Positions 1 to 62,555 are shown, counted from the first letter of the stretch. The stretch: 64,000 nucleotides of DNA from an archaeon (GCA_030631995.1 DAOVKB010000001.1:1136-65135); one strand, 5' to 3'. Notes: generated by a model from the letters alone, not told the origin. Numbers and translations: made by a program.

Positions 1-2041
1 TTCTTAATTCCACATTAGCTTGGGCATCTGTTATGGAATTTATCCAATCTCTATCCATTTCTTCATCCAAACTAGTGATTATAGTGACTTTAGCTGTAGC
101 AGGAAGTTGTTTTATAGATTCTGTTGGAATATATTCTATTTTAGGTACCATAAGTGTTACTCCTCTCTTAGTATCTTTTACAATTCTAGACACGTGATCT
201 AAAACAGCTTCTAATCCTACAATTGAAGTTGTTTGAACTGGAGGAATTTGCGTTTCACTTGATGTAGCTTCTAAGGTTCTAAAATCGTTTTTCAATTTCA
301 TTGTTGCACTTATTAGATAGTTAGCTGTATCTGTTAATTTTCTTTCTGAATCTTCAATAAACTTAACAGAAGAGTCAACTTCCTCAATCAACTTACCAGA
401 GACAAGCTCCTTACTCTCTCGTATTCCGTTCTTTGAACTATCAATTACATCTCTTGAGATATCCATCGCAGATTCTATTGTTGTTTGAAGATGATTGTTT
501 AAACCAGAAACAACCTCGGAAATGGTTGATTGAAGTAGACTTTGAGATTCATCATATTTTTCATTAAGCTTTGTTTCAGTTTCCTGAGAGAGAAAATCTA
601 ATCTTTGTGCTATTTCACTCCAATTCTCTTTCAAAGATGACGATTCAGCATCAAGATCTTGAACAAGTGTAGTATTTAGTTGAGACGATAATTCTTTGAA
701 TTTGACTAATTGAGCTCGTATACTGTTGACAATCTCTTCTGTTGAAGCGGTAATTTGTTCAATTAAATTCTCCTCAAATCCACTGAAACGTGTTATTGCG
801 TTTTCTTTGACTTCACTTATTTTTTCATTATATTCATTAATTGCAGTAGTATATTTCGCATCTAGTTTTTGAATGAATATATCTCTTTCACTAACTAAAT
901 TGTTCCTCTGACTCTGTTCTTTGTTTTCTAAGTCTGTGAATTTTAGGTTCATACTTTCTCTGATTTGAGAGACTGAGCTTGAAATTGCTTGGTTTTTCTG
1001 CTGCATTATCTCTTCTAATAAACTAACTTTAATTTGTGATACTTTCTCGTTTAAAGCAGAGAGAGATTCCTTAATTTGAAGAGAAAGATCTTCTACTTTG
1101 TTATTCAAAACCATATCAAGGGAATTGCTTAATTCAGTAAGAGAACTTGAAACAGATTCTGAAATACCTTCGATTGTTTGTTCAGTGTCCCTAGTTATTT
1201 CAGTGGAATATCCAACATACTTTTCAGTTTGACTTCTGTTGAATGCTCTTACATCCATTTTTGTTGTATCTATATTTTGTTTAATTTGTGCGATTGTTGA
1301 ATCTATGTCATTTAGGTACTGTTGATTCATTTCATCAAATTTCGGTTTTACTACTTGTGCCGTTGCTGATATTTTATCAATGGATGTTTGAGAATTTTCT
1401 GCTATCTCTGTAGTGAATGTTGTAAGATTCTCCTTGTTTTTTGCTTTAATATTGGAAACAGAAGAATCAATAGAAACTTTGGATTTGTTCAAGCTTTCAA
1501 GGCTATCCGTAAATACGCTCTGCAATGTTGTTTGAACGTTTCTTCTATGATTATCTTGATCAGAGAGTATTTTGGATGAAAAAACTCCTATTTTCTCATC
1601 AATAGCTTCTGTTTGTTGTTGGTTTAAGGTTTGAATTGAAGAAGATGTTTGCGTTAACTTCTGATCTAATTCATCCTCTTTTCTCGATACTGATTCATTT
1701 AAGCTAACTGATAGATTATCTTTCAATTGATTAAACGTTTCTTTCTTTTCTTGGAGAAAAGATGTTGTCTGACCCAGAGTGCTTTTAACATTCTCACTTA
1801 GTTGATCGCTTGTAGTTCCCAAGTAGTCCAATGGGATTTTTCCGTAGTATTTCTTTACATATCCTTCCGAAGCACCAACTGCACCTTTATTCAATAGAGA
1901 ATCTAATGCAACCTTAACCTTTGAAAAATGTAACTTGCTAAACTGTGTTATTTCAAAAGTAGTCAATTGCCCTCCACCTAAAAGAAGTTGGTAAACTTGT
2001 TTTTCTTCAGGATTTAGTTGTAATCTTTCAATAAAAGACAT
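1..2041 (-). CDS. Partial (C-terminus lies off the window) very long coiled-coil protein with an N-terminal TrmB-like winged HTH; paralog of 42016..44325
   Basis: Open frame runs on the minus strand from the ATG at 2041 (MSFIERLQLNPEEKQVYQLLLGGGQLTTFEITQFS...) to the window edge. N-terminal wHTH-like segment, then >600 aa of heptad-like, Q/S/N/E/K-rich sequence with no breaks. Not in the ORF track because it has no stop inside the window. Confidence 0.5.
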   Translation of the reverse strand, partial: MSFIERLQLNPEEKQVYQLLLGGGQLTTFEITQFSKLHFSKVKVALDSLLNKGAVGASEGYVKKYYGKIPLDYLGTTSDQLSENVKSTLGQTTSFLQEKKETFNQLKDNLSVSLNESVSRKEDELDQKLTQTSSSIQTLNQQQTEAIDEKIGVFSSKILSDQDNHRRNVQTTLQSVFTDSLESLNKSKVSIDSSVSNIKAKNKENLTTFTTEIAENSQTSIDKISATAQVVKPKFDEMNQQYLNDIDSTIAQIKQNIDTTKMDVRAFNRSQTEKYVGYSTEITRDTEQTIEGISESVSSSLTELSNSLDMVLNNKVEDLSLQIKESLSALNEKVSQIKVSLLEEIMQQKNQAISSSVSQIRESMNLKFTDLENKEQSQRNNLVSERDIFIQKLDAKYTTAINEYNEKISEVKENAITRFSGFEENLIEQITASTEEIVNSIRAQLVKFKELSSQLNTTLVQDLDAESSSLKENWSEIAQRLDFLSQETETKLNEKYDESQSLLQSTISEVVSGLNNHLQTTIESAMDISRDVIDSSKNGIRESKELVSGKLIEEVDSSVKFIEDSERKLTDTANYLISATMKLKNDFRTLEATSSETQIPPVQTTSIVGLEAVLDHVSRIVKDTKRGVTLMVPKIEYIPTESIKQLPATAKVTIITSLDEEMDRDWINSITDAQANVELR

Positions 2042-8257: not shown

Positions 8258-8265
8258 CTTTTTTC

Positions 8266-9075
8266 TTACGAAAGCGCTTTCATCAGCTCTTTCCTTAAAG
8301 TTTTCGATACATTCAAAGATTCTTTAATGACAGATAAGAGTTCATCAGTTTTATAGACTCCTGTTGCACCTTTTTGTATAGATACAATTCGGTCTTCTTC
8401 ATCAAATCCTACAGTTACTCTTGCTTCACTAACTCTTTCTTCTTTGAAATTGGCATCAATTATATTATTCTCTCCAATTTTGTATGAGGTTACGGAAATA
8501 GGATAATGATCAATTTTCAAGGGTTCTACTTCTTCTAGGATTTCCACTTCATCATTTTCAAGTATTTTTACTTTGGGAATCTTTGTAGTTGCAAGAGCAG
8601 CTACAGCACCAATTACTGCAGCATCGAATAAATTGCCATCATGATTAAGAATGTAGAAATCTATGAATAGAATCCACACGGATTTTTTTGGTATAACACA
8701 TAATTTAGATAAATCCACACAATGAGATTCTCTAATAGCTCTATCTGTTACACGTGCTAGTTCAATTGCAGCACTACTTGGAGGTCCACTCTCAAAATAG
8801 GGAGAAGCTATTGGTGATAATTCTGCGGTTGTGGTGATAACTCCAGTATCTGGAGTATCAGGGAATGGAGAACCTAATAGTGCCTTTATACCTACAATTA
8901 ATTTAGATCCTCCTAAGTTAACAATTGCAGAACCTTCTGCCTTTTGAACAAGGTTAATTTCAAGTTCAACACTTCGTGCTTGATTGAATTCTCTACCATC
9001 TATTCTTTTCTTTTGTTCCAGTAAGGATTTAATGTAATCTTTTTCAATTTCACTTATAACAAAATCGTCGCCCAT
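8266..9075 (-). CDS. rrp42: Exosome subunit Rrp42 (inactive RNase PH-like)
   Basis: RNase PH fold; translationally abutting rrp41 (ends 9076/9075); conserved operon order rrp4-rrp41-rrp42. Confidence 0.8.
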   Translation of the reverse strand: MGDDFVISEIEKDYIKSLLEQKKRIDGREFNQARSVELEINLVQKAEGSAIVNLGGSKLIVGIKALLGSPFPDTPDTGVITTTAELSPIASPYFESGPPSSAAIELARVTDRAIRESHCVDLSKLCVIPKKSVWILFIDFYILNHDGNLFDAAVIGAVAALATTKIPKVKILENDEVEILEEVEPLKIDHYPISVTSYKIGENNIIDANFKEERVSEARVTVGFDEEDRIVSIQKGATGVYKTDELLSVIKESLNVSKTLRKELMKALS

Positions 9076-20940: not shown

Positions 20941-23900
20941 TTGGAGTATATTATTTTGGAAAATAAGAATCAAATATTTGAATCTGTTAAGGCATTGCCT
21001 GTTTTTACAGAAGAAGAAGAAAAGATATTAGAATTCTGGGAAAAGAAGAAGATCTTTGAGAAAGTTAGAAAACTACGACAAGAAGGACCTCTTTTCAGAT
21101 GGTTAGAAGGTCCCCCAACAGCAAATGGTCTTCCCCATATCGGTCATGCTTTGACACGAGCTATCAAAGATGTTTTCTTGCGACACAAATCAATGCATGG
21201 ATATAACATTGTTCCATGGATAGCAGGATGGGATTGTCATGGACTTCCTGTTGAACTAGAAGTCGAAAAAGAATTAGGTTTCAGTGATAAATCCCAAATA
21301 GAGGAATATGGAATAGTCAAATTCAATGAAGCTTGTAGAAAATCTGTATTCAAATATGTTAAAGAATGGCATGATATGTCCAAGAGAATTGGTTTCTGGC
21401 TTGATCTTGACAACCCTTACGTTACTATGGAAGAAGATTACGTGGAGAGCGTATGGTGGTCTTTGAAAGAGATATACAATAAAGGATTGATATATTTAGG
21501 TTACAAAGTCGTTCCCTATTGTCCAAGATGCGGAACACCATTATCACAAGCAGAAGTTGGACAGGGAATGATGGAAACTACAGATCCTTCAGTACATGTG
21601 AAATTTAAGTCATTAGATTTCGAGGACACATATTATTTAGCATGGACAACTACTCCATGGACTTTGATATCAAATGTTTGTTTGACTCTACATCCAGATG
21701 TAGATTATGTTCATGTGGAATATAATGGAGAGAAACTCATCTTAGCTGAAACTATAGCAGAAAATTTATTAGGTGATTATATAGTGCTTCAAAGATTTAA
21801 AGGAAAAGATCTTGAATACAATAAATACGAACAACTATTCCCTTATATTGTTCCTAAAGAAGAAGCTTTTTACGTAGCTCTTGCAAATTATGTGACCACA
21901 GAAGAAGGTACAGGTATAGTTCATTCAGCTCCTGCTTTTGGAGAAGATGATGCAGAAATAGGAAAGAAATATGGACTTCCTGCAATGAACCCAGTTCTAG
22001 AAGACGGTACCTTCTCCGAAGAGATTACAGATTTTTCAGGTTTGTTCGTTAAAAAAGCAGACACCAAAATTATGAAAAATCTTGAAGAGAGAGGATTACT
22101 ATTCAAGAAAGGTACTTACAAGCACATTTACCCCTTCTGCTATCGATGTGATGGTCCTTTGCTTTATTATTCAACTGAAACCTGGTTCATAGAAATGTCT
22201 AAAATGAGAGAACAGCTAGTCGCAAATAATAATCAGATACGCTGGCAACCTGTTCATCTTAAAGAAGGAAGGTTCGGTAATTTCATAAAAGAGGCTAGAG
22301 ATTGGGCTCTCTCAAGAAACAGGTTTTGGGGAACTCCATTACCAATCTGGATATGTGAAAATGGGCATAGAACAGTAGTTGGTAGTTTAGAGGAACTAAA
22401 AACTCTGTATGGAAAACCGTTGCCTGATGATTTCAGTTTACATATACCGTGGGTAGATAAAATAAAATTCAAATGTTCAGAATGCGAGGAAATAAGTAAA
22501 CGAGTTCCTTATGTTGTTGACTGCTGGTATGATGCAGGAAGCGCACCGTTTGCTCAATATCATTATCCATTTGAGAATAAAGAATTATTCAATGAACACT
22601 TCCCCTATGATTTCATAACCGAAGCTATTGATCAAACACGTGGTTGGTTCTACACTCTACTTGCTATAAGTACAGTTCTGTTTGATAAACCAGCTTACAA
22701 GAGCTGTTTGTCTATGGGGCATACACTTGATGAGAAAGGCAAGAAAATGAGTAAAAGTAAGGGAAATGTTATCTTTGCTAATGACGTTATCCCAGAATAT
22801 GGAGCAGATGCAGTACGATGGTTCCTTTTTTCATATCCTACATGGAACAGTATACGAGTAGATGCAAACCAGATATACGAAACAATGAAGAAGTTCATAC
22901 TAACTCTTTGGAATAGTTATAGTTTCTTTGTTTCTAATTCGAATGTGGATCAGTTCAATAAAGAAACTTTCTACGTCCCACTAAAAGATAGACCAGAGCT
23001 CGATAAATGGCTGATAAGTGAAGTAAACTATCTGATAGTAGCAATAAATGAAGCTCTTGAAAATATGACAGTACATATAGCAGTTGAAGCTTTTGAAAAG
23101 TTTGTAATAGATAAATTCAGCAACTGGTATTTGCGTCAATCTCGTCGTCGATTTTGGAAAGATGATCTAGATTTAGATAAGAAATCTGCTTATATAACAA
23201 CCTATGAGGTTTTGGTGACAATGTCAAAAATACTTGCACCATTTTTACCATTCATATCGGAACAATTATTCCAGAATCTCGTGAAAAGATTGAATCCAGA
23301 TGAACCTGAAAGTGTTCATTTGTGTTTGTACCCTTCATTTAACAAAAAGCAAACCGATTCAGAATTATCCAAAGATATGAATGCCGTACTATCACTCGTA
23401 ACTACTGGAAGAAGTATCAGATCAGCTGCAAATATAAAACTAAGACAACCTCTGTCAGAGCTAGTTATAATAGCTCCAATTGGTAAGGAAAAATTGATAG
23501 AGAAATACAACGATGTGCTCAAAGAAGAACTTAATATCAAGAAAGTTTCTTTGCAAGAGACTTCAGATGAACTTGTTAAATATCAAATAACTCCCAATTT
23601 CAAGGTTCTAGCACCTAAAGTAAAATCAGAGATTAACGAAATCAGAACGCAGTTAAGTCAGTTGGATGCGCAAACCGCAAGCGATTATGTTAAACTGTTA
23701 TCAGAAGGAAAAGATGTCACTTTGAACATTGATGATAAGAAATATACGTTGACACCAGAAGATGTTAATTACAAAATAGAGGTTCTTGAAGGATTTACTG
23801 GAGAAGAATCAGAAGGATATCTCCTTCTATTTAATACAACAATAACTGAAGAACTAAAACGAGAAGGTTATGTGAGAGATATTGTTCGACGTATTCAGAC

Positions 23901-24114
23901 AATGAGAAAAGAGTTGGATCTCGAATATACACAAAACATACAATTAACAATCAAAGCTGATGAATTCGGATCTGATGCACTTGAAGAGTTCAGGGATTTC
24001 ATAATGAGTGAAACACTAAGTACTGAGCTTAGAGAAGAAAAACCAACCGAAGGTCATGTTAAAGAATGGGAATTTGATGGATATAAAGTTTCAATAGGCA
24101 TTGTGCCTATATAG
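20941..24114 (+). CDS. ileS: Isoleucyl-tRNA synthetase
   Basis: Class I HIGH (PHIGHALT) and KMSKS (KMSKSKGN) motifs; IleRS-specific WTTTPWTL; editing domain; ~1057 aa. The start appears to be a TTG at 20941, since no in-frame ATG precedes the conserved N-terminus. Confidence 0.9.
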   Translation: MEYIILENKNQIFESVKALPVFTEEEEKILEFWEKKKIFEKVRKLRQEGPLFRWLEGPPTANGLPHIGHALTRAIKDVFLRHKSMHGYNIVPWIAGWDCHGLPVELEVEKELGFSDKSQIEEYGIVKFNEACRKSVFKYVKEWHDMSKRIGFWLDLDNPYVTMEEDYVESVWWSLKEIYNKGLIYLGYKVVPYCPRCGTPLSQAEVGQGMMETTDPSVHVKFKSLDFEDTYYLAWTTTPWTLISNVCLTLHPDVDYVHVEYNGEKLILAETIAENLLGDYIVLQRFKGKDLEYNKYEQLFPYIVPKEEAFYVALANYVTTEEGTGIVHSAPAFGEDDAEIGKKYGLPAMNPVLEDGTFSEEITDFSGLFVKKADTKIMKNLEERGLLFKKGTYKHIYPFCYRCDGPLLYYSTETWFIEMSKMREQLVANNNQIRWQPVHLKEGRFGNFIKEARDWALSRNRFWGTPLPIWICENGHRTVVGSLEELKTLYGKPLPDDFSLHIPWVDKIKFKCSECEEISKRVPYVVDCWYDAGSAPFAQYHYPFENKELFNEHFPYDFITEAIDQTRGWFYTLLAISTVLFDKPAYKSCLSMGHTLDEKGKKMSKSKGNVIFANDVIPEYGADAVRWFLFSYPTWNSIRVDANQIYETMKKFILTLWNSYSFFVSNSNVDQFNKETFYVPLKDRPELDKWLISEVNYLIVAINEALENMTVHIAVEAFEKFVIDKFSNWYLRQSRRRFWKDDLDLDKKSAYITTYEVLVTMSKILAPFLPFISEQLFQNLVKRLNPDEPESVHLCLYPSFNKKQTDSELSKDMNAVLSLVTTGRSIRSAANIKLRQPLSELVIIAPIGKEKLIEKYNDVLKEELNIKKVSLQETSDELVKYQITPNFKVLAPKVKSEINEIRTQLSQLDAQTASDYVKLLSEGKDVTLNIDDKKYTLTPEDVNYKIEVLEGFTGEESEGYLLLFNTTITEELKREGYVRDIVRRIQTMRKELDLEYTQNIQLTIKADEFGSDALEEFRDFIMSETLSTELREEKPTEGHVKEWEFDGYKVSIGIVPI

Positions 24115-40518: not shown

Positions 40519-41196
40519 TTGTTTGAAGAGAGAGTCTATATGAAAGTTGAATTTCCTGAAGATTTATCTGATGCAAGAGAATTTCAGAAAAGGATAGCTG
40601 AAAAAGCGGTAATTAGAGACAGTTTGAAGAAAATCTCAAAAGTTGGAGCATTAGATGTTGCGTATAAGGGAAAACAAGGTTATGTCGCAGGTATTATTTT
40701 TGATGTAGAAAAGAAAGAAGTAATCGAAAAGAGAACACTAAAAGATGATATAGCTTTTCCATACATCCCTACGTTCTTGTTTCTAAGGGAGGTTCCATTC
40801 TTTCTTAAAATCTTACCGAAATTTAGTAATATGCCTGATTTGTTCTTAATAGACGGTCACGGAATTGCCCACCCTTACTTTGCTGGATCTGCAACCATCT
40901 TTGGTGTTCTTGCTAATAAACCTGCAATTGGCGTGGCTAAGAAACCATTAAGATATTTCAGTTATATGCCATCGAAAAATGAAAATACAAAATACATCAA
41001 GGTTAAGGAAAGGGATGTTGGAATCCAATATAGATCAAATGAAAAATGGAACCCAATCTACATCTCACCTGGAAACAAAATATCTATCCAATCCTCTTTC
41101 AGAATAGTAAAGCAAATAATGTCTTCCAGATATAAAATTCCAATTCCCTTGCATTTAGCACATTTAGCAGCCGCGGAATCCAAATCTCTTCTCTAA
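40519..41196 (+). CDS. nfi: Endonuclease V (deoxyinosine 3' endonuclease)
   Basis: DVAYKG...YVAG, FPYIPTFLFLREVP, IDGHGIAHPYFAGSATIFG motifs of EndoV. Confidence 0.8.
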   Translation: MFEERVYMKVEFPEDLSDAREFQKRIAEKAVIRDSLKKISKVGALDVAYKGKQGYVAGIIFDVEKKEVIEKRTLKDDIAFPYIPTFLFLREVPFFLKILPKFSNMPDLFLIDGHGIAHPYFAGSATIFGVLANKPAIGVAKKPLRYFSYMPSKNENTKYIKVKERDVGIQYRSNEKWNPIYISPGNKISIQSSFRIVKQIMSSRYKIPIPLHLAHLAAAESKSLL

Positions 41197-41684: not shown

Positions 41685-41939
41685 TTGATATATGTGGCAG
41701 TAGCACTTGAAAATCCGAAATTGAGGCAAGAGCTTTTATCTGATTTACCTCCAAGCGCGATTACAATTTATAAGATAGTTATTGGAAATGGTCCAATCAC
41801 TAGCAGAGAAATTGTCGAAATGTGCAGTTTAGCACCAAGAACTGTTCGTCATGGATTAAAACTTTTAGTAAGAGCTGGTTTAATTCAAAAACTTCCACAT
41901 CTTTTAGATATGAGATCCTGCAAATTCTACGTTGATTAA
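41685..41939 (+). CDS. Small winged-HTH protein (putative transcriptional regulator)
   Basis: 84 aa; PITSREIVEMCSLAPRTVRHGLKLLVRAGLIQK is wHTH-like. The ORF-track start is a TTG; the true start is uncertain. Confidence 0.4.
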   Translation: MIYVAVALENPKLRQELLSDLPPSAITIYKIVIGNGPITSREIVEMCSLAPRTVRHGLKLLVRAGLIQKLPHLLDMRSCKFYVD

Positions 41940-42015: not shown

Positions 42016-44325
42016 TTATACTTCTACATCACTGGAGTGAAATAGAACATCTCTATTTATTGCAGCTTTGAATAATTGCAATAGAAGATCATTTGTTGTT
42101 CTAACAGCAATTGGAACTTCATCAGTAGAAAGAAATGCGAAAATGGCTTCTTGATTACCATCAAGAATTCCACAGTAAACATCTTTCTTTTCATAATGTT
42201 TTAACTTCAAACCTGTGAATCTTTCTGATAAAGGTCTAAGCAGTGTTTGGTGTTTACTTTTATCAAACGATGAGACCAAAGTTATTCGTTGAGCTTTAGT
42301 ATATTGCATCATTTCTTTTAATAACTCTTCATCAACATCAGGAGTAACCAAAAGCAACTCAAATTTAGAACGCATTGCAATATCAGTAACACTTGCTTTA
42401 ATAGCCTCTTCTCCAACAATTATTGATGTGTTATGCTGACCATCGAAGGAATAAGTAGAAGCCGATTTATCTATTTGTCTTAACTCATCTTCTCTAGTAT
42501 TTATGACCTGATAGAATGTCATTGCCTTTTCCATTAATGAATCGAGTTGAGTTACTAAAATTTCATCTACATCCTTGATTACGGCAGCTACTTGTGATAC
42601 TAGAGTATTAATTTGAATTTCTTCCCCTTCAGTAACTTGTTTGATAATTTGATTTTTATTCTCTTCTTTGTAATCCTTCAAGTTCTGTTTTGTATCAGTT
42701 AATTCTTGAGCAAAAGCTTCTTTTTTCGTATTCACTTGCTCATTAAAACTAGTAACAGAAGATTGTAGCTTTTCTTTTAAATCCAAAGCCATTTTTTCAG
42801 AATCTTGTTTTGATTTGTTTAGTTCCTTTATAACATTTGATTGCAACTTTGCTATCACTTGAAATTGATCATTTGCATAGATCTTAACTTCCTTTGTTGC
42901 TTGTTCTTTCATTGCTGTTAATTGCTCTTCTGTTGTTTGTTTCAATTCTTGAGTTACCTGTGAGCATGAATCATACGAAGATCTAGCATATGCTTCAGTT
43001 TGGTTTTGAAGTAAATCCAATAAATCGCTTGGAAGTAAATCGATTTGTTCTAATGTAGCATCTATAAGCTGATTCTTCTTTGTTCTTATTGTAGTTTCAC
43101 CATCAAGTTGGAAATGATCTAGCTGTGATCTGATTTCATCTCTGACTTCATTCAGTGCTAGAACGTGTTGATCGATTAATTGCAGACCACTTTCATTGAG
43201 ATCATTTGCTAAATTTCTAACTGTATCTCTTGCATCTATCAAGGGTGATTCAATTTGCTTCCTTGCCTTTCCTAATTTTAGAACAGCTGAAGAGTCAATG
43301 CTATTAATAGCCTCAGCAATCTTCGAGGACAAGAAATTTGTTTGTCTGTCTATCTGTTCAACACTTCTACGTAATTCTTGGGTTTGTTTTATTTGCTCAG
43401 AGAAAAGATTATTCACGTCTTGTGATAATGCATCAACAATCTTCTTTGATTCATTAATCCAACCCGAATAGGCTTCTTGCCAAACTTTGTTGTAGTTATC
43501 AGAAAAAGATTCTTGGATTTCTGAAATTTTACCTACTAACTCTTTTAGCTCCACATCTATCTCTGGTGCAAGTTTATCTAAGAACTCATGATGATTATCA
43601 GTGTGAGCATCAAGCCCGTTACTAATAATTTTTTTCAGATTGTCGAATGTTTCTTTTGTTTTCCCATCTATTGAGTTTAGTAGCTGCTCACTTTGCTGAT
43701 TTGCTGTGTGATGAAACTGCTTAATGAAAGCGTTAAGCTCTTGAATGTAGGTTTCCAATTGTGTGGAAAATACTAATGGTTGATCCATAATTCTTGTTAA
43801 ATAGCCCTCAACCTCTGCTCGGATTCCTTCAACAAATTCCGAAGCTGAAATCTCTGTTGTATCTGTGAAATCCATATAATTTTGGTATAGAGAATCAACT
43901 ACCTGTTTGATTAGACCACTAACCACGTGGATATCGAAAACAGTTCCTTCACCTGTGAGTTCAAGTGTCCCTCCAAATTTCTCCTTTTTCTCTTTGTATT
44001 CCTCTTTTGCACCTTTAAGAGAGGTAATAACTGCATCTAGAGAGTATAAACCATCCTTTTCAACAACAATGTATTCTTTTAGAAACGGAAGTATTCCAAA
44101 ATAAACAGGAGTTCTCCCTATAGTTTTCTTTAGGAAGCCTAATTCTTCTAAATTCTTAACTGATTGAATGAGTGTAAGAGGATCTAATCCAGTTACGACC
44201 AATAATTCCCCTATTGTAACTTTTCCAAGACCCAATGTAGCAGAATATACTTTGATGTCTGTTTCATTGAATCCTATTCGAGTTAATAATGGAGGAAGAA
44301 TATCAATTTTTGACATTTTATTCAT
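42016..44325 (-). CDS. Large (769 aa) N-terminal wHTH plus long coiled-coil protein with a C-terminal globular domain
   Basis: N-terminal TrmB-like wHTH (DIKVYSATLGLGKVTIGELLVVTGLDPLTLIQSVKNLEELGFLKK). ~450 aa of Q/E/K/S-rich heptad-like sequence. ~150-aa C-terminal domain of unknown fold. Architecture parallels the partial gene at 1..2041. Confidence 0.5.
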   Translation of the reverse strand: MNKMSKIDILPPLLTRIGFNETDIKVYSATLGLGKVTIGELLVVTGLDPLTLIQSVKNLEELGFLKKTIGRTPVYFGILPFLKEYIVVEKDGLYSLDAVITSLKGAKEEYKEKKEKFGGTLELTGEGTVFDIHVVSGLIKQVVDSLYQNYMDFTDTTEISASEFVEGIRAEVEGYLTRIMDQPLVFSTQLETYIQELNAFIKQFHHTANQQSEQLLNSIDGKTKETFDNLKKIISNGLDAHTDNHHEFLDKLAPEIDVELKELVGKISEIQESFSDNYNKVWQEAYSGWINESKKIVDALSQDVNNLFSEQIKQTQELRRSVEQIDRQTNFLSSKIAEAINSIDSSAVLKLGKARKQIESPLIDARDTVRNLANDLNESGLQLIDQHVLALNEVRDEIRSQLDHFQLDGETTIRTKKNQLIDATLEQIDLLPSDLLDLLQNQTEAYARSSYDSCSQVTQELKQTTEEQLTAMKEQATKEVKIYANDQFQVIAKLQSNVIKELNKSKQDSEKMALDLKEKLQSSVTSFNEQVNTKKEAFAQELTDTKQNLKDYKEENKNQIIKQVTEGEEIQINTLVSQVAAVIKDVDEILVTQLDSLMEKAMTFYQVINTREDELRQIDKSASTYSFDGQHNTSIIVGEEAIKASVTDIAMRSKFELLLVTPDVDEELLKEMMQYTKAQRITLVSSFDKSKHQTLLRPLSERFTGLKLKHYEKKDVYCGILDGNQEAIFAFLSTDEVPIAVRTTNDLLLQLFKAAINRDVLFHSSDVEV

Positions 44326-44446: not shown

Positions 44447-45121
44447 TTATTCTTCTGAAACACCAAATTTAGGGCAATATTCTGAAACAAAGCAATTTAA
44501 GCATCGAGGTTTTAGAGCTTTACAGATTTCTCTTCCGTGAGATATTAATAGATGAGTAATTCTTCCCCATTTTTCTGTTGGTATTATTTGCATCAAGTCT
44601 TGCTCAATTTTTATTGGATTTTTATTCTTTGTCCATCCCAAACGATACGAGATGCGTTTGACATGTGTGTCAACAGCTATACCTTCATGAATTTCAAACC
44701 AATCATTCAAAAGTACATTCGCTGTTTTTCTACCTATACCAGGTAATTGAGTTAACTCTTTAATGGAAGTAGGAACTACGGAGTTATGTTCATCGATCAG
44801 TTTTTGAGACATATCCTTGATAAATTTAGCTTTGTTCTTGTAAAGACCAACCTTTGCGATTGCTTTTTCAATTTCATCTAGGGTAGCAGATGCGAGATCT
44901 CGGGGAGAAGGATAGCAAGAGAATAAATCTTTAGTTATTGAATTAACTTGCTTATCTGTGCTTTGAGCACTTAAGATTGTAGCTACCAGTAGCTGATAAG
45001 GAGATGCATAGTTAGCTAAGCCCCCTTTAAACTTAGGATAATGATTTTCCAAAAAATTTAGAATTATCTGATTCTTTCTATTTGATACATTACTCATTAA
45101 AGTTGGTGACTTTGAGCTCAT
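44447..45121 (-). CDS. nth: Endonuclease III (Nth) with [4Fe-4S] cluster
   Basis: HhH-GPD region (LPGIGRKTANVLL). C-terminal Cx6Cx2Cx5C cluster (CKALKPRCLNCFVSEYC). Confidence 0.85.
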   Translation of the reverse strand: MSSKSPTLMSNVSNRKNQIILNFLENHYPKFKGGLANYASPYQLLVATILSAQSTDKQVNSITKDLFSCYPSPRDLASATLDEIEKAIAKVGLYKNKAKFIKDMSQKLIDEHNSVVPTSIKELTQLPGIGRKTANVLLNDWFEIHEGIAVDTHVKRISYRLGWTKNKNPIKIEQDLMQIIPTEKWGRITHLLISHGREICKALKPRCLNCFVSEYCPKFGVSEE

Positions 45122-45338: not shown

Positions 45339-45956
45339 TTGAACAATGGATTGTATAGAAAAAAGGACAGTGATAGGGGAAAGGCTATGGCTGCAGGACA
45401 AAGAAAAATATTTAAAATTACACTACTGGGAGACGGTGCAGTAGGGAAGACAAGTCTAAGGAAAACATATCTGGGAGAGGGATTTAAAGATGGATATTCC
45501 ATGACAATTGGAGCTGATTTCGCTGTTAAGCGACTACGTATCGATGACCAAGATTTTGTTGCCCAAATTTGGGATCTTGCAGGTCAACAGAGATTCTCAG
45601 CTGTTCGTGAAGTTTATTACCGTGGAACTTCTGGTTGCCTCTTAGTTTTTGATATCTCTCGTCGATCCAGTTTTGAAAACATTCCTTCTTGGATTGCTGA
45701 GCTTCTTAAAAATAACAGTAATCGTGTTGTTCCTATCGTTCTCATTGGTAATAAATCCGATTTAAGGTCTACAGCTAAAGATCCAATCATGCGTGAACAA
45801 GCTGAAGAATATGCTCGCTCTCTTTCTGGTTGGTCTGGTTTTACTGTTCCATATATTGAAACTTCTGCTAAAACTGGAGAAAATGTTGATGAGGCTTTCA
45901 AGACCTTATTGAAAAATATCGTTTTATTCTATGAGAAGCTTTATGCGCAACAATAA
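45339..45956 (+). CDS. Ras-superfamily small GTPase, Rab-like
   Basis: G1 GDGAVGKTS, switch I TIGADF (Rab TIGxDF), G3 WDLAGQQ (WDTAGQE), G4 GNKSDL, G5 ETSAK. The start is probably the internal MAAGQRK. Confidence 0.75.
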   Translation: MNNGLYRKKDSDRGKAMAAGQRKIFKITLLGDGAVGKTSLRKTYLGEGFKDGYSMTIGADFAVKRLRIDDQDFVAQIWDLAGQQRFSAVREVYYRGTSGCLLVFDISRRSSFENIPSWIAELLKNNSNRVVPIVLIGNKSDLRSTAKDPIMREQAEEYARSLSGWSGFTVPYIETSAKTGENVDEAFKTLLKNIVLFYEKLYAQQ

Positions 45957-45971
45957 ACAATTTAGCTTCTT

Positions 45972-46784
45972 TTACTCTTCATTTTTCGCTATCTTTACAT
46001 TCATGGTATCTTCATTAAATGCTGGATGTAAAGAAACAGTTTCATCTTCATTTACTTGTAGTATTTTCATTTGTTCTAGCTCCAGTATATATTTCCTAGT
46101 TTGAGATAATGATACTCCCAGAACAAAAGAAAGTTGTATAGGCGCTATAACTCCCATCCTTCTAAGTAAACTTATAATATTGAATCTTGGATCGGTTGTC
46201 ACTAATCTCTCAAATACTTCTTTTTGGTTTTCCCACAATTTTCTTTCAACATTGATTTCTCCCATTTTATCTTTAAGTTCTTTTTTTTCTGCTTCAATCG
46301 CTACTAGTTGATCTGATAATTCGTAAATTAGTGATTCTCTTTCATCTAAAAGAAGTTTTAACATCTCCTTTTCTCTCTCCCAATCTGGAGTTTCTATGGA
46401 TCCATCAACACTTTTCACATTTGGAGTCTCCATAAACTCTCTCACTTCTTCTGAGAGAGTTCGATCTCTTTGTGATGTAACAGACATCATACTTGAGAGG
46501 AAATTAAATAATCTAAAAAATTCCGATTTCATTTCCGATATTATTTGTTCAGAGGAGTTTTCTAATAACTCGTTAACATACTCAAGCGCGGGTGAAAGCT
46601 CTAGTGTCGAGGTTTTCTTCTTATTGAGAGATTGGAAAATTCCCTTGCTTTCTTTTTGAGTAGATCTAAAATTGTCTTTGATTTCTTTTACTTCTTTAGA
46701 TAGTTTTGATATCTCATCTGCTATTTCTTGAAATTCTTCAGGTTCCTCTGTTCCATTCTCCTCTCTTTCTTCCATTGTTATCAA
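45972..46784 (-). CDS. Acidic coiled-coil protein with C-terminal winged HTH
   Basis: 270 aa. Acidic N-terminus, central coiled coil, C-terminal wHTH-like segment (FNIISLLRRMGVIAPIQLSFVLGVSLSQTRKYILELEQMKIL). Its start abuts the stop of the upstream gene (46784/46785). Confidence 0.4.
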   Translation of the reverse strand: MITMEEREENGTEEPEEFQEIADEISKLSKEVKEIKDNFRSTQKESKGIFQSLNKKKTSTLELSPALEYVNELLENSSEQIISEMKSEFFRLFNFLSSMMSVTSQRDRTLSEEVREFMETPNVKSVDGSIETPDWEREKEMLKLLLDERESLIYELSDQLVAIEAEKKELKDKMGEINVERKLWENQKEVFERLVTTDPRFNIISLLRRMGVIAPIQLSFVLGVSLSQTRKYILELEQMKILQVNEDETVSLHPAFNEDTMNVKIAKNEE

Positions 46785-47621
46785 CTATATTTTTGCTGTT
46801 GATTCTATTTTGAAACCTTCTGCTTCTGAAGGAGATATCTCCAAGTTTTCACTAATGTAAGCTACACCCATCAGTTTTGTTATTGCAAAATTATCCCTGA
46901 TTCTGCTTCCTACTGTAGTTCTAGAGAAGTAGAAAATTCCTTGAGCTGCATTCATGATGATTCTTTCCGCAACTGGATCAAGAATACCTTGTGGTAACAA
47001 GAAGAAATGAATACCTTCTATTTGTTCAAAAGACATAATCGAGTCCTTTAGAAAGGTTATAAGTGCATTAGAATCTTCATCTAATCGATCTTCTTTCATC
47101 CATAAGAGATCATCAAAAACACTGAAGCATTTCTTTTTTTGTGTTTTCTTTACATGGAGCATTCTCTCAATTACTTTTTTTACATATGTTTTGCGTCGAA
47201 CTTCAATCTTACCTAATTTGAGTGCTGAAGCCATAGCTGAACTTGATAAATCAAACATATTCTCGAAATACCAGTTTTTGCCTTCAAAAGGTTTAACATC
47301 CCATGCATATGCTTGAAAAGATCGCAAAACGTGGTTATATGGTCGCCCACTGTGTACATAGAAAATGATATTATCTTCAGATTGTTGAGCCCAATTCAAT
47401 AAAATTCTTTGAACAAACAGAGTAGGAATTACTGTATCAGATGGATAACTAACTAAAATAATGGACCCTTTGGGTAGCCCTCTTCGATTCGATAGCTCCA
47501 TACCAAGCTTTTGATCAAGTGATCGTATTCCAGTTAATATTAGTTCTCCTCTTGAATCTACAGTAGGCTCTTTTTTCCCTATTCTGTCAATTCCTCCTTT
47601 TGAAGCATCTGAATCCATCAA
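46785..47621 (-). CDS. RecA-fold KaiC/RadA-like domain protein with degenerate Walker A (probable pseudo-ATPase)
   Basis: GIRSLDQKLGMELSNRRGLPKGSIILVSYPSDTVIPTLFVQRIL mirrors the KaiC/RadA LDxxLGGGLPxGSxxLIxGxPGTGKTxFxxQFL block. The P-loop glycines and lysine are replaced (YPSDTVIPT). Confidence 0.35.
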   Translation of the reverse strand: MMDSDASKGGIDRIGKKEPTVDSRGELILTGIRSLDQKLGMELSNRRGLPKGSIILVSYPSDTVIPTLFVQRILLNWAQQSEDNIIFYVHSGRPYNHVLRSFQAYAWDVKPFEGKNWYFENMFDLSSSAMASALKLGKIEVRRKTYVKKVIERMLHVKKTQKKKCFSVFDDLLWMKEDRLDEDSNALITFLKDSIMSFEQIEGIHFFLLPQGILDPVAERIIMNAAQGIFYFSRTTVGSRIRDNFAITKLMGVAYISENLEISPSEAEGFKIESTAKI

Positions 47622-47646: not shown

Positions 47647-48165
47647 TTAAAATTGTTCTAGTTCCCGCAATGCAAGTTCTAAATCGGAAATAAACTCATC
47701 CTGTACTTTCTTTTCTTCAACTACAACAGGTTGTTGTGCAGGTATTGGTTGAACTTCTGGAGGAGGTACAGGTTTAGCTTCCACATCTAATATATTCCTT
47801 ACTTTTTCTGCGGCAATTTTCATGGTTCTTCTTACCATTCCAAGTGCAACTCCAGTATCAGTAATAAGGCATAATACTGTACTACCACAGCTTGCAACTA
47901 ATATTAACCCCTCTTGAAACTCAGATATGATAATATCTAGCTCTGCTAACCCAACATTTTGACCCTGCTGTTCACTAGCTAAATATACTGCACTAGCGAT
48001 AGCGCCTAAGGCTTCTGTCTCGAATTCATCAAAAGCAAATCGAGAAGAATAAGCTAGTGTTAATCCTGTTTTATCTGCTAATATAACATGATTGATATTA
48101 GCATCACTTGTTATAATTTCATGTAGAATTGTATTTATCTGGTCAGCACCATACAAACAAATCAC
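47647..48165 (-). CDS. Roadblock/LC7 (MglB-like) domain protein with Pro-rich linker and C-terminal helix
   Basis: N-terminal ~120 aa fit the Roadblock pattern (VILADKTGLTLAYS...LGAIASAVYLASEQ...LILVASCGSTVLCLITD); then PVPPPEVQPIPAQQPVV and an amphipathic C-terminal helix. Confidence 0.6.
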   Translation of the reverse strand: MICLYGADQINTILHEIITSDANINHVILADKTGLTLAYSSRFAFDEFETEALGAIASAVYLASEQQGQNVGLAELDIIISEFQEGLILVASCGSTVLCLITDTGVALGMVRRTMKIAAEKVRNILDVEAKPVPPPEVQPIPAQQPVVVEEKKVQDEFISDLELALRELEQF

Positions 48166-59097: not shown

Positions 59098-60405
59098 ATG
59101 AGATTATATGAATATGAAGCTAAACAGATTTTTGAGAAATTTGGATTAATAATTCCAAAGCAAATTGCAATAGTTAAAGATATTGAGCAGTTAAATGATC
59201 TTTCAATATCCTTTCCAATAATGATCAAAGCGATGGTATTGATAGGTGGTCGAGGTAAAGTGGGAGGGATTAAAAAGGCAAAAAATATTGATGAGACAAA
59301 GACGATTATTAGTGAAATGCTCAAACTCTCAATTCATGGTTACTCAATAGAAAAAATACTGCTAGAAGAAGCTGTCAATATCTCAAGTGAGATTTATTTA
59401 TCAATTACTACTGATCCAGCAACCTTTGATATTGTAATAGTAGCTTCAGCAAGCGGTGGAGTGGACATAGAAGAAGTTGCTAGACAAAATCCTGAAAAAA
59501 TTTGGAAAAGGACAATTCTGGAAAATGTAAAAGAATTACCAGGTGCTATAGCTGATGAAGCAGTAGAATTTTTGGTGAAGAGTGAATCAAATTTAATAGG
59601 ATCGGAGAATCAACTAAAAGTAGCAATTCAATCTCTTTATTCAGCTTTTCAAACTGCGGAAGCGAAAATATGTGAGATAAATCCTCTAATTGTTGCAGAG
59701 GATGAGAGAATTATTGCTGCAGATGCAAAAGTAGTACTTGATGACAATAGTTTGTATAGACAAGAGCCTTTATTGAAATCTATTGGAATAGATCCAAGAA
59801 GTAAAAGACATGATATTTCAGAACAAACATTTTTTGAGGATAAGGCTTACAGAATAGGCTTTCCATATTTAGATTTACTTGATGAGCCTGAGGAATTTGT
59901 AAAAGAAGAAGATAAACTTTATGTTGGTTTGGTTCCTGGAGGAGCAGGTTATGGTATTTTTTCTATTGATGAGGTTGTTAATGTAGGGAACCGCTATTTT
60001 AACGGTAAAGCTGTGCCAATAAATTTCATGGATAGTGGAGGTGGTCCATCATTCAGCAAAGTAGCAGATATGTTTCATTTACTTATGGATCATCCTGCCA
60101 CCGATTTAATAATTACAAGTCGATTTGGAGGAATTTCCAGCTGTGACATATTTATTCGTGGTTTAATAATGTCATTAAGAGATCGATACACAAAAAGGAA
60201 ACGGATGATTCCCGTCTTCGGTAGAATGGTTGGAACTGATTTAGCTGCAGCTCGTGAGTATTTTGAAAAAGCTAAAAGGGAGACACCAGAACCATTAAAG
60301 GATTTACACATTGTTGTGGGGAACCAGAAAATCATGGCAGATGTCATAAAAGATGGCATAGAATATGGTTTCAAAATAAAGAGTCAAGAGGGAGTAACTA
60401 GGTGA
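59098..60405 (+). CDS. aclB: ATP-citrate lyase beta subunit (SucC-like ATP-grasp; AclB) or closely related citryl-CoA synthetase large subunit
   Basis: MRLYEYEAKQIF ATP-grasp N-terminus like SucC. 435 aa (longer than SCS-beta). Immediately followed, with a 4-nt overlap, by a CoA-ligase-alpha plus citrate-synthase-like fusion. Confidence 0.55.
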   Translation: MRLYEYEAKQIFEKFGLIIPKQIAIVKDIEQLNDLSISFPIMIKAMVLIGGRGKVGGIKKAKNIDETKTIISEMLKLSIHGYSIEKILLEEAVNISSEIYLSITTDPATFDIVIVASASGGVDIEEVARQNPEKIWKRTILENVKELPGAIADEAVEFLVKSESNLIGSENQLKVAIQSLYSAFQTAEAKICEINPLIVAEDERIIAADAKVVLDDNSLYRQEPLLKSIGIDPRSKRHDISEQTFFEDKAYRIGFPYLDLLDEPEEFVKEEDKLYVGLVPGGAGYGIFSIDEVVNVGNRYFNGKAVPINFMDSGGGPSFSKVADMFHLLMDHPATDLIITSRFGGISSCDIFIRGLIMSLRDRYTKRKRMIPVFGRMVGTDLAAAREYFEKAKRETPEPLKDLHIVVGNQKIMADVIKDGIEYGFKIKSQEGVTR

Positions 60406-62555
60406 GAACTATGGCAAAAGGAATGCTAAATTCAGATCAAGGTTTACTTTATTATTTAATTAAAGAAGTCAGACCAGAGCTAGCAAATCAAATCACTAAA
60501 ACAAAAACAATTGAAACCATGATTGTAGGTCTCGGAAGACAAGGAACTAGACATGCACAACTCATGATGGAATATGGAACTAATGTTACCTGTGGTGTAG
60601 CTCCTGGTAGAGGGGGAACAAAAGTTCATGAAACTATACCTGTTTATAATTCAGCACAAGAAGCAATTAATAATCACTCAGATATTGCAATCGCTAGCAT
60701 ATGGAGACATTATTCCACTGCTAAAGATGCAACAATTGAGGTGATAAAGTCAGGGATTCCTATTGTTGTTCTAATCTCTGAATTTATTCCATTGAAAGAT
60801 GTGAGAGATATTCTAGTTGAAGCTAGAAAGCACAAAACGATTCTATTTGGTGGAAACACACCAGGAATAATTTTCCCACCAGAAGGAATAAAAGTTGGCA
60901 TGCTTCCAGATATTTTTCAAGCACAAATTATTGGAGAAGAAGTGGGAGCAAAAGGTGTAACAATTTTATCTCGAAGCGGGGCAATTCTCTATCATATGTC
61001 AGATGCATTAGCTAGTGCAGGTATTGCACAAAATGGTGTATTAGGGATAGGAGGAGATGGTGCAATAGGGGCCAGATTTGTAGATCTTGTTTCGTTGGTA
61101 ATGAAATATGAGGAGACAGATTTAGTAGTAGTTGCAGGAGAAATAGGAGGGATGCAAGAAGAATTGCTTGCACAAGACATGATAGCTCACCCTGAGAAAT
61201 ATCCCAAACCATTAGTTGCATTAATTTCAGGAGCTAATGCTCCAGAAGGGAAAACAATGGGACATGCAGGAGCAGTAATATCTCCAGGCCAGAATTATGG
61301 TACTTTTATTTCAAAAAAAGAGATATTAGAAAAAGCAGGAGCTACAGTAGTTAATCATCAAAGAGATTTAATCGAAGCTGTAAAATCCAAGTTAAATAAA
61401 ACCTACTTTGAAATTGAAGATTATTATAATAGAATGCGTAAAAAATGGGATGCTAAATCACCTGAACCCACCTGGGGAACATTAATTACTAATGTTATGC
61501 CCAATAATTTAATTATCCGAGGATATCCTTTGCAAGAGATTATCTCAAGGAAGGGACTACTTGAGACAGCTTATTTACTAAATAATGGTGAATTTCCTGT
61601 TGAGCAAATTGCAGAGCTAGAGAATCTTGCATTAAAAGCTCTAAAGGACGAATTACATACTGGTTATAACATCCTCAATGAAACAGATGTTGCAAAAGTA
61701 ATAGGTACTTTTTTGCTACTTGATGATAATCTATCAAGCTTTGCGCAAGAAGTTAATGATGGTTCCAAAGTAGTAGCATACGCACTTGGAAGGGTATTGA
61801 AATATCTTACCAAATTCTTCAATAACGACGATAAAATCATTAATTTACTGAAAGAGGATGTTTCATTTTCAGAATTAATTTACTTAGGTTTAGTAGGTGA
61901 AATACCTTCTGATGTGTCGAAAATTAAATTGCTCGAAGCGATAATCACAGCTTGTGTAGATCATGGAGTCACACCACCTTCTGCACAAGCAACTCGTATT
62001 TTAGCATCGACACGTGCAAATTATGAAGTGGCCCTTTCAGCTGGTACCCAAGCTATTACAGATATTCATGGTGGTGCAGGTCAAAAAGCAGCAGAATTTT
62101 TCTTATCAGTTGTTAAGAGTGCTAAAGAAAACAGTAAAGATCTTAATGAAACCACTTTTGAATCAATCCGAGAGACAATCAAAGCTGGAAGAAGGATTGA
62201 AGGATTAGGGCATCGCATCCATACACAAGACCCTAGAAGAGATGTCCTTTGGGAACTTTCTGAAAAAGCTGGTTATGCAAAAGAATGTGTTTCTGTTTCA
62301 AAATTGGTTACTGATGCGTTCTATAGAGTTAGAGGAATGAATTTACCTATCAATGTGGATGGGGTTATTGGCGCGATTATAGCTGACATGGGCATCGATC
62401 CTAAACTAGCCAAGGCGGTCTTTGTCTTTGGAAGAATTGCAGGATTAACAGCACATTATTATGAAGAAATCAATACTCAATCCCAGATGAGAAGACTTGC
62501 TTTCGATAGAGCGGTATATAAAGGACCTTCCATTCGTGAAGTTCTTGAGGATTAA
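60402..62555 (+). CDS. aclA: ATP-citrate lyase alpha subunit (SucD-like CoA-binding/phosphohistidine domain fused to citrate-synthase-like citryl-CoA lyase domain; AclA)
   Basis: CoA-binding Rossmann region (IVGLGRQGTRHAQ), phosphohistidine loop MGHAGAVIS, C-terminal citrate-synthase-family motifs (DIHGGAGQ; GLGHRIHTQDPRR). 717 aa. Confidence 0.6.
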   Translation: MRTMAKGMLNSDQGLLYYLIKEVRPELANQITKTKTIETMIVGLGRQGTRHAQLMMEYGTNVTCGVAPGRGGTKVHETIPVYNSAQEAINNHSDIAIASIWRHYSTAKDATIEVIKSGIPIVVLISEFIPLKDVRDILVEARKHKTILFGGNTPGIIFPPEGIKVGMLPDIFQAQIIGEEVGAKGVTILSRSGAILYHMSDALASAGIAQNGVLGIGGDGAIGARFVDLVSLVMKYEETDLVVVAGEIGGMQEELLAQDMIAHPEKYPKPLVALISGANAPEGKTMGHAGAVISPGQNYGTFISKKEILEKAGATVVNHQRDLIEAVKSKLNKTYFEIEDYYNRMRKKWDAKSPEPTWGTLITNVMPNNLIIRGYPLQEIISRKGLLETAYLLNNGEFPVEQIAELENLALKALKDELHTGYNILNETDVAKVIGTFLLLDDNLSSFAQEVNDGSKVVAYALGRVLKYLTKFFNNDDKIINLLKEDVSFSELIYLGLVGEIPSDVSKIKLLEAIITACVDHGVTPPSAQATRILASTRANYEVALSAGTQAITDIHGGAGQKAAEFFLSVVKSAKENSKDLNETTFESIRETIKAGRRIEGLGHRIHTQDPRRDVLWELSEKAGYAKECVSVSKLVTDAFYRVRGMNLPINVDGVIGAIIADMGIDPKLAKAVFVFGRIAGLTAHYYEEINTQSQMRRLAFDRAVYKGPSIREVLED

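Follow-up and report, generated by a model that had tools for sequence, protein, structure and literature searches.

TrmBL2-like archaeal proteins with a greatly expanded hendecad linker helix

The window analyzed here, a 64,000-nucleotide stretch of DNA from an archaeon (GCA_030631995.1 DAOVKB010000001.1:1136-65135), contains two genes, A (42016..44325, minus strand) and B (1..2041, minus strand), each of which encodes an N-terminal winged helix-turn-helix (wHTH) domain, a very long helical rod and a C-terminal phospholipase D (PLD)-like domain. Both proteins are members of the TrmB family and are nearest to TrmBL2 in domain content, with the linker helix hugely expanded: the helix α5 of TrmB (~30 residues) is replaced in both by a continuous segment of ~530 residues built on 11-residue (hendecad) repeats. 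At 0.15 nm per residue, the fully extended rod of either protein is ~80 nm long. The account tentatively preferred here is that these TrmBL2-like proteins pair antiparallel about the midpoint of the rod and serve as spacers or tethers of fixed length. The novelty lies in the combination of the TrmB family with a hendecad coiled coil. The family is apparently undescribed so far in the literature searched, as no account of a wHTH-rod-PLD family was found in work on TrmB and TrmBL2, on hendecad coiled coils or on Asgard coiled-coil proteins.

Two distant paralogs with one architecture

An earlier note on this DNA, made from the sequence alone, had described A and B as giant paralogs in which a TrmB-like wHTH is followed by a long heptad coiled coil, and had added a third, shorter relative. 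That interpretation is partly supported: both open reading frames (ORFs), the shared architecture of a TrmB-like wHTH and a very long amphipathic helical rod, and the periodicity of the center all stand, and the heptads and the third relative do not. Gene A appears in the ORF list as a maximal ORF of 769 aa. Its orthologs open with MSKIDILPP, which corresponds to the fourth codon of the ORF, and the true start is therefore probably at 44316, giving a product of 766 aa. The database orthologs of A (n = 20) are 762-767 aa long, are 48-93% identical and come from metagenome-assembled genomes (MAGs) of Heimdallarchaeota. Gene B runs past the window edge at its C-terminus, so that translation gave 680 of its 747 codons, the full length of 747 aa being known from a database protein of 100% identity (P0021). 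A genome scan with the B family returned B orthologs only, in 25 GTDB species, one per genome and nearly all of exactly 747 codons. The sources named for relatives of A and B are Heimdallarchaeota or Heimdallarchaeaceae MAGs. The G+C content of the window is 31-37%, and a scan of its 64 kb with hidden Markov models (HMMs) of the family N- and C-domains found these domains in A and B only.

Similarity between A and B is weak in pairwise comparison, for which BLASTP gave a single, C-terminal match (A 633-709 with B 604-680; 21% identity, E 0.005), but is clear between profiles. Full-length comparison of the two ortholog alignments by hhalign gave a probability of 93% (E 3.3e-7, ~300 columns), and the domains taken separately gave E 1.1e-4 (N-domains) and 3.3e-4 (C-domains). 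A specific similarity of the A rod to the B rod was considered and rejected (hhalign probability 6%). Both the HMMs built from the A family only and those built from the B family only recognized the two ends of many third-party proteins; for P0183, as an example, the A models gave 7e-20 and 4e-21 and the B models 1e-6 and 8e-10. The profile comparisons, together with intermediate sequences matched by both sets of HMMs, establish the kinship of the two genes, which on these comparisons are distant paralogs rather than recent duplicates.

The N-terminal domain is a TrmB-type winged helix

The wHTH occupies residues 14-80 of A (44086..44286, minus strand; coordinates confirmed by translation) and residues 3-70 of B (1832..2035, minus strand). 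The Pfam TrmB profile (PF01978, gathering score 25.6 bits) scored 28.3 bits with B, 27.5 bits with the first 100 aa of A and 23.4 bits with the whole of A, and it matched 38 of the 38 family N-domains tested; the family N-domain HMM, which also identifies the domain in A, matched that of B with E 8e-28. When a profile of these 38 domains was searched against PDB sequences, the best matches were TrmBL2 (E 1.2e-13) and TrmB (E 6.9e-13), the next genuine wHTH following at ~1e-5. The alignment to TrmBL2 and TrmB extends beyond the wing into the start of helix α5. The family consensus is the motif E..VY..LL..G.LT..E, and the TrmB-like assignment made in the earlier note holds.

The C-terminal domain has a PLD fold of TrmB type

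Residues 628-769 of A (42019..42444, minus strand) form, according to structure prediction and Foldseek, a PLD-fold domain of TrmB type that lacks the HKD motif. An AlphaFold2 (AF2) model of residues 623-769, made with an alignment of 55 family C-domains, was confident (pLDDT 94.7, pTM 0.88) and predicted a β-α-β-α-β-α-β4-α fold. In a Foldseek comparison of this model with the PDB, the matches were headed by FAM83A, a PLD-like pseudo-enzyme (2.5e-8), four TrmBL2 entries (~4e-8; TM 0.61-0.68) and the TrmB effector domain 2f5t (3.9e-7; TM 0.71, rmsd 2.7 Å, 144 columns); full-length TrmB (3qph) ranked after 2f5t, and the PLD nucleases Nuc, NucT and Zucchini stood further down the listing. The earlier note had treated the C-terminal globular domain as a property of A. 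It is present there, but B has the same domain, cut by the window edge: its first 80 residues lie at 2..241 (minus strand), as identified by BLASTP, hhalign and a collinear alignment, and match the family C-domain HMM with E 2.3e-25.

Fold comparison alone identified the domain: profile searches of the C-domain against PDB sequences gave nothing significant, and the isolated C-domains of A and B had no match in Pfam. A homolog search with the C-domain alignment returned only five fragments. The alignment of 55 C-domains contains no conserved His or Lys, and hence no catalytic HxK(x)4D (HKD) motif; its only invariant residue is a Glu in the 'RDxEE' strand, and a Pro is nearly invariant. The modeled domain is thus a catalytically dead PLD fold. 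Neither A nor B matched PF11495 (Regulator_TrmB), and three short family members (255, 361 and 450 aa) matched it below threshold (15-20 bits; cut-off 22.2), over positions 2-136 of its 233 only. Given the fold matches and this restriction of PF11495 coverage to the first half, the C-domain as modeled is the first TrmB effector subdomain without the second, sugar-binding subdomain, which is the arrangement of TrmBL2. The second subdomain of the effector-binding domain, with G320 and E326, was not found in these proteins, which finish ~145 residues after the rod.

TrmBL2 (TK0471 / PF0496; PDB 5bpd, 5box, 5bpi, 5bqt), an archaeal nucleoid-associated protein, therefore shares with A and B the TrmB wHTH, the helix that follows the wing and a PLD-like domain at the C-terminus, the sugar-binding subdomain being absent. 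It differs in its size (264 aa) and short linker helix, whereas the helix of A and B is a hendecad one of ~530 residues that reaches ~1,700 in relatives, and in its origin, the characterized proteins being from Thermococcales and the named members of the A/B family all from Asgard archaea. TrmB of P. furiosus and T. litoralis (PDB 3qph, 2f5t), a sugar-sensing regulator, shares the PF01978 wHTH, the fold of the first effector subdomain and an amphipathic helix directly after the wHTH, and the antiparallel pairing of α5 discussed below is a TrmB feature. A and B differ from TrmB in their giant rod, in the missing second β-barrel sugar-binding subdomain and in having no significant PF11495 match.

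The center is a phase-locked hendecad rod

The rod comprises residues 81-623 of A (543 aa; 42457..44085, minus strand), as delimited by an 11/3 periodicity and AF2 helices, and residues 71-600 of B (530 aa; 242..1831, minus strand), as delimited by the same periodicity at constant phase. Spectra of hydrophobic residues were computed on A 101-620 and B 86-600, with 200 shuffles as control. Both rods gave a single sharp peak at 3.66-3.68 residues, with a power at 11/3 (3.667) of 9.16 in A and 9.55 in B, against a whole-spectrum maximum in the shuffles of 1.3 ± 0.26 on average and of 2.24 (A) and 2.07 (B) at the highest. The power at 3.5 was 0.18 in A and 0.02 in B. Of the long heptad coil proposed earlier, the ~500 residues of helical sequence, periodic far beyond chance, are borne out, but the repeat is the hendecad and not the heptad.

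One 11-residue register is held for ~45 rows in both proteins, with the phase drifting by under one residue across A 133-627 and B 67-605 (within ~50 degrees over ~500 residues), and because the phase is constant the rods contain no stutters or skips. The core positions a, d, e and h, those of a classical right-handed or straight hendecad coil, are 52-55% L/I/V/M/F/Y/W, compared with 15-17% elsewhere (in A, 55% and 17%); S/T/N/Q account for 30-38% of the rod and Pro for less than 1%. AF2, run with the A-family alignment, placed residues 81-623 in six long helices (81-120, 132-180, 182-347, 351-428, 432-567 and 573-623, the third of 166 residues), and mutual information in 54 B-family sequences showed the i+3 and i+4 couplings expected for a helix. 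The centers of A and B also contain conserved blocks with invariant residues. The central region is neither heptad-based nor low-complexity, the latter being a possibility that the earlier note had raised against itself.

Known hendecad coiled coils, namely the A/V-ATPase peripheral stalk E-G, the F-ATPase b subunit, tetrabrachion RHCC and MOM1 CMM2, share the 3.67 periodicity and the a-d-e-h core but have no sequence homology to A or B, and they span tens to ~120 residues, whereas the A/B family has 45 to ~150 consecutive hendecads without a stutter. To our knowledge, the family rods would rank among the longest uninterrupted hendecad coiled coils. As their length is also constant over deep divergence, rods of this type offer a natural system for the mechanics of non-heptad coiled coils and for molecular rulers.

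Rods of many lengths in an Asgard superfamily

The extent of the superfamily was determined by searching the B-family profile (hmmsearch) against 1.84 billion cluster representatives (clusters at 50% identity), which gave 327 representatives at E ≤ 1e-3 and 94 at E ≤ 1e-10. Among the best 150, essentially every full-length protein has an N-terminal wHTH, a far-C-terminal PLD-like domain and a central period of 3.64-3.68. The distance between the two domains ranges from 33 residues in a 255-aa protein, which is of TrmBL2 size, to 1,692 residues in a 1,907-aa protein. Rod lengths are continuous over this range, with intermediates of 141, 230 and 425 residues and clusters near 525, 585, 690, 755, 870, 1,085, 1,200 and 1,260.

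All members with a named organism among the 30 representatives looked up are Asgard (Heimdallarchaeota, Kariarchaeaceae, Hodarchaeales, Njordarchaeia, Baldrarchaeia, Lokiarchaeota, Promethearchaeota, Thorarchaeota and Jordarchaeales), about one third being nameless metagenome proteins. The superfamily is likely absent outside Asgard, in agreement with the expansion in Asgard genomes to which the earlier note had pointed; apparently several paralogs per genome are present there.

Two giant members, P0181 (1,907 aa, Promethearchaeota) and P0179 (1,307 aa), show peaks of rod similarity at multiples of 22 residues. P0181 also passes the gathering score of the Pfam Apolipoprotein profile PF01442 (93.2 against 90) and would be mislabeled by automatic annotation. 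Public annotations of the superfamily read 'hypothetical', 'helix-turn-helix domain-containing' or, for several members from JGI, 'sugar-specific transcriptional regulator TrmB', and a single fragment from the family bears the JGI label 'ATP synthase subunit b/b''. All of these labels mislead, as does 'Apolipoprotein domain'. The domains from which the whole superfamily has been assembled are those of an archaeal chromatin protein already known.

Rod length is conserved and changes at the midpoint

No indels at all were found in residues 1-646 of the B family among 54 distinct sequences (identity down to ~37-50%), and all the indels seen reflect alternative starts or loops of the C-domain. Rod indels are likewise absent from representatives of two further groups, of ~750 aa and ~1,000 aa, compared at 32-45% identity. 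In the A family, where rod identity falls to 42%, the only rod site at which orthologs differ in length is the midpoint segment, residues 342-361 (SIDSSAVLKLGKARKQIESP; 43243..43302, minus strand). P0015 lacks 11 residues at 342-352, and two Heimdallarchaeum species lack three at 346-348 and one at 361. The midpoint of the A rod is residue 352, the AF2 helix break falls at 348-350, and the segment lies within a conserved central block (305-410).

The ~1,089-aa group has one real length difference, a deletion of 22 residues at 517-538, and its rod midpoint is residue 514. In P0086 (Hodarchaeota), residues 378-410 are an exact threefold tandem repeat of SMISNFQSETT (11 aa) at a relative rod position of 0.52. 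No other recent tandem duplication was seen in the 150 representatives, and this one seems to capture a rod in the course of growing by duplicated hendecads. When the A-family midpoint indels, the 22-aa deletion and the P0086 duplication are counted as three independent cases, each within ~3% of the center, their chance occurrence is, by our own estimate, of the order of 1e-4. In both rods, conservation is highest at either end and within a block of ~100 residues at the center.

Antiparallel pairing and a possible tether function

The length changes are central and preserve phase (11, 22 and 3+1), which suggests that the two halves of the rod are paired about a dyad, either in an antiparallel homodimer or in a hairpin. 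In TrmB, the α5 helices themselves pair antiparallel, through F81/I91' and F84/L88' (PMC4158304), and an elongated antiparallel dimer is for this reason the most economical model. MOM1 CMM2 is reported to show that antiparallel homodimers can be built from hendecads (PMC3276543). Judged from sequence, the rod most likely pairs antiparallel about its midpoint.

The rods of A and B would then pair about their centers, for example as homodimers in the manner of TrmB α5. Each end of the particle would carry a head composed of a wHTH and a PLD-like domain, the two heads lying ~80 nm apart for both A and B, and the conserved central ~100 residues would provide a family-specific docking site. Less surely, the particle might be a rigid spacer or tether, bivalent and fixed in length, keeping at a set distance either two DNA segments, bound non-specifically as by TrmBL2, or two protein partners. 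TrmBL2 is a non-specific nucleoid protein that coats and stiffens DNA and stalls SMC (PMC4158304, PMC11840125). The spacer or tether role, possibly exercised on the nucleoid, is inferred by analogy with TrmBL2.

Several observations weigh against this account. The argument from midpoint symmetry rests on three to four events. Mirror-symmetry scans over all pairing sums S (conservation, hydropathy, side-chain volume and charge) showed no peak at the midpoint, and neither did summed mutual information with average product correction (APC) in the 54 B-family sequences. The full-length AF2 model of A is of low confidence (mean pLDDT 62), strict conservation of rod length is equally typical of filament-forming proteins, and we infer the oligomeric state of the rods only from their sequences. 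The neighborhoods of A and B (five A loci and the surroundings of B) give no firm functional clue.

A second group of unfavorable observations concerns the heads. The DNA-contact residues of TrmB are Tyr50 and Asp51 (PMC4158304), and neither is conserved in the profile alignment of the A/B family, in which the two columns are variable and often acidic (Ile/Gln in A, Lys/Val in B). The corresponding contact Tyr50 of TrmBL2 is also a point of difference from the family, whose DNA binding is putative. The family N-domains are slightly acidic on average (mean net charge -1.6), and in the rods the net charge amounts to -28 to -32. Because the contact residues vary and both N-domains and rods are acidic, DNA binding may have been lost in the A/B family, and the term 'DNA-anchored' used in the earlier note amounts to an assumption. 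MreA, an accepted member of the TrmB family, also lacks the Tyr (PMC4158304).

Alternative explanations

The main rival to the tether is a cytoskeletal role like that of intermediate filaments, in which parallel dimers or higher bundles would make up filaments and the two end domains would be head and tail modules for assembly or interaction, possibly in a nucleoid-associated scaffold. This explanation is doubtful but has several points in its favor. At 32-50% identity the rod length is strictly kept and indels are absent, conservation extends to the two rod ends, and rods of up to ~1,700 residues look more structural than regulatory. FilP and Scy, which form filaments in bacteria, likewise show a non-heptad periodicity. 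Along with these two proteins and crescentin, intermediate filaments and lamins share with A and B a head-rod-tail organization, an invariant rod length and conserved rod ends, and a DNA link, as with lamins, is possible. However, these proteins have no sequence or fold relationship to A and B, and intermediate filaments have rods in which heptad-based dimers run parallel. If chains lay parallel and in register, a change of length could be accommodated at any site, whereas those observed cluster centrally, and the homologous TrmB helix pairs antiparallel. Polymerization of A or B would moreover be conjecture.

An intramolecular hairpin of the kind found in SMC proteins, Rad50 and chemoreceptors would likewise fit the central position of the indels. 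The rod would fold back at its midpoint, bringing both end domains together as one head on a ~40 nm stalk, and the conserved apex would bind a partner. AF2 breaks the A helix at residues 348-350 into arms of 81-347 and 351-623, Foldseek matches of the full-length model include chemoreceptor and Rad50 hairpins, and A orthologs conserve Gly352 and Pro361, within the conserved central block and at the only site of indels. AF2 monomer models nevertheless tend to fold back long amphipathic helices, and the pLDDT of this one was just 62. The changes at the midpoint preserve phase, which a free loop would not need, and B and most other subfamilies have ordinary helical sequence there: among 85 family members Gly and Pro were not generally enriched at rod midpoints, and a small excess of Pro was seen just before the center. 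SMC, Rad50, MukB and chemoreceptors resemble the family in the strictness of arm length, in changes confined to the fold-back or symmetry point, in a conserved central tip and in the AF2 models. The differences are that A and B have no ATPase head, hinge or zinc hook (Pfam gave no match in either to an SMC-type Walker A/B ABC-ATPase head or to a hinge or hook), that their repeat is hendecad rather than heptad, and that most subfamilies lack a helix-breaking apex. A hairpin is therefore possible for A but not general across the family; as an explanation of the whole it is unlikely, and less general than the antiparallel dimer.

The 11- and 22-residue periodicity raises the question of whether the center, instead of being a coiled coil, is an amphipathic helix that binds lipid or membrane in the manner of apolipoproteins, perilipins or LEA proteins. 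PF01442 scored below threshold with A (23.6 bits) and B (38.2 bits) in addition to its match above cut-off with P0181, the A-family profile matched apoA-I, apoA-IV and apoE in the PDB (PDB sequence searches with it and with full-length A yielded nothing beyond apolipoprotein-type noise), and the giant members show the 22-residue autocorrelation described above. Apolipoproteins A-I, A-IV and E do share 11/22-residue amphipathic helical repeats with A and B. However, the scores of A and B lie far under the cut-off of 90, the hydrophobic stripe is a narrow seam confined to a, d, e and h and made of large residues (L/I/V/F), there is no Lys-flanked class-A charge pattern in rods that are acidic (net charge ~-30), Pro does not punctuate the 22-mers, and the end domains belong to a DNA-binding family. 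A lipid-binding rod is thus very unlikely, and homology to apolipoproteins was rejected, the weak Pfam and PDB matches being a periodicity artifact of the 11/22-residue repeats.

A reading of both proteins as ordinary effector-responsive TrmB transcription factors with a low-complexity linker, which the presence of PF01978 and the JGI label on several members might suggest, is scarcely credible, since the sugar-binding second subdomain is absent, the DNA-contact Tyr and Asp are not conserved and the center is a phase-locked hendecad with conserved blocks, invariant residues and no indels; the earlier note had likewise thought ordinary transcription factors improbable, and the chromatin protein TrmBL2 is among the closest structural relatives.

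Possible significance

An extension of the tether account that is improbable, but of some consequence if correct, is an Asgard-specific nucleoid skeleton composed of set-length rods that carry at either end a DNA-binding head derived from TrmBL2. The rods of such a skeleton would measure ~80 nm in A and B and up to ~250 nm in relatives from Loki- and Promethearchaeota. Singly or as a lattice, they would space chromosomal segments or connect the nucleoid to other structures, and paralogs with differing rod lengths would be different molecular rulers. The result would be a prokaryotic functional analog of lamins, the nuclear matrix or tether proteins in the lineage from which eukaryotes were founded. 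How the cell interior and the genome are organized in Asgard archaea, among prokaryotes the nearest kin of eukaryotes, is an open question, for which TrmBL2-headed, bivalent rods of fixed length provide testable candidates as nucleoid organizers or cytoskeletal elements.

Genomic neighborhood and other genes of the window

A neighboring gene encodes a stand-alone wHTH protein of 84 aa (41685..41939, plus strand; HTH_24 24.9 bits, family N-domain HMM E 8.6e-9) and is convergent with A. A homolog of 81-86 aa lies downstream of the A ortholog in all four other loci examined, giving five of five, and is retained despite differences among the genes upstream; the small protein might act as a partner to A or regulate it. 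Beyond it lies an endonuclease V gene (40519..41196, plus strand; E 1e-49), and on the other side of A are genes for endonuclease III/Nth, with an HhH-GPD domain and FeS motif (44447..45121, minus strand), and for a Ras-family GTPase (45339..45956, plus strand; E 2e-49). Three other genomes carry the same gene set around the A ortholog. In Ca. Heimdallarchaeum endolithica, the gene directly upstream of the A ortholog, and on the same strand, is that of the GTPase; at the fifth A locus, the upstream gene is that of endonuclease V.

The earlier note had asked whether the rod genes lie near GTPase genes. A Ras-like GTPase is indeed found near A in four of five loci, but because the whole region is syntenic, including genes for TIM, Spt4 and ribosomal proteins, this linkage is weak evidence for a functional link. 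The DNA-repair genes for endonucleases V and III, which flank A, are near it in other loci too, which probably reflects synteny rather than function. The neighbors of B are housekeeping genes, encoding a phosphoribosyltransferase, an RFC-like AAA protein, a ferredoxin and a Dna2-like helicase.

Three genes on the minus strand form an operon that converges on the GTPase gene: Roadblock/LC7 (47647..48165), a KaiC-like protein apparently without an intact Walker A motif (46785..47621; PF06745 25.4 bits in an ortholog) and a coiled-coil protein with a C-terminal winged helix (45972..46784). The last of these is the gene that the earlier note had taken for a shorter relative of A and B. Such a relationship was rejected, as the hhalign probability was below 3% and no family HMM matched. 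The best period of this protein is ~3.54, which is heptad-like and helical, with no 11/3 signal, and its strongly conserved C-terminal segment is a plausible winged helix that matches HTH_24 below threshold (E 0.095 here, 1e-3 in one ortholog). It is the last gene of the Roadblock/KaiC-like operon and belongs to a different family. The operon and the GTPase gene are conserved as a cluster in at least three other Heimdallarchaeaceae genomes, and the cluster looks like an Asgard regulatory module of small GTPase and Roadblock proteins.

Several other large ORFs lie in the window, among them those at 20941..24114 (plus strand; 1,057 aa) and 60402..62555 (717 aa). At one of the orthologous loci, on a metagenomic contig (L030), a gene a few kb from the A ortholog (8264..8731) encodes a ubiquitin-conjugating enzyme (UQ_con), a eukaryotic-signature protein typical of Asgard archaea.

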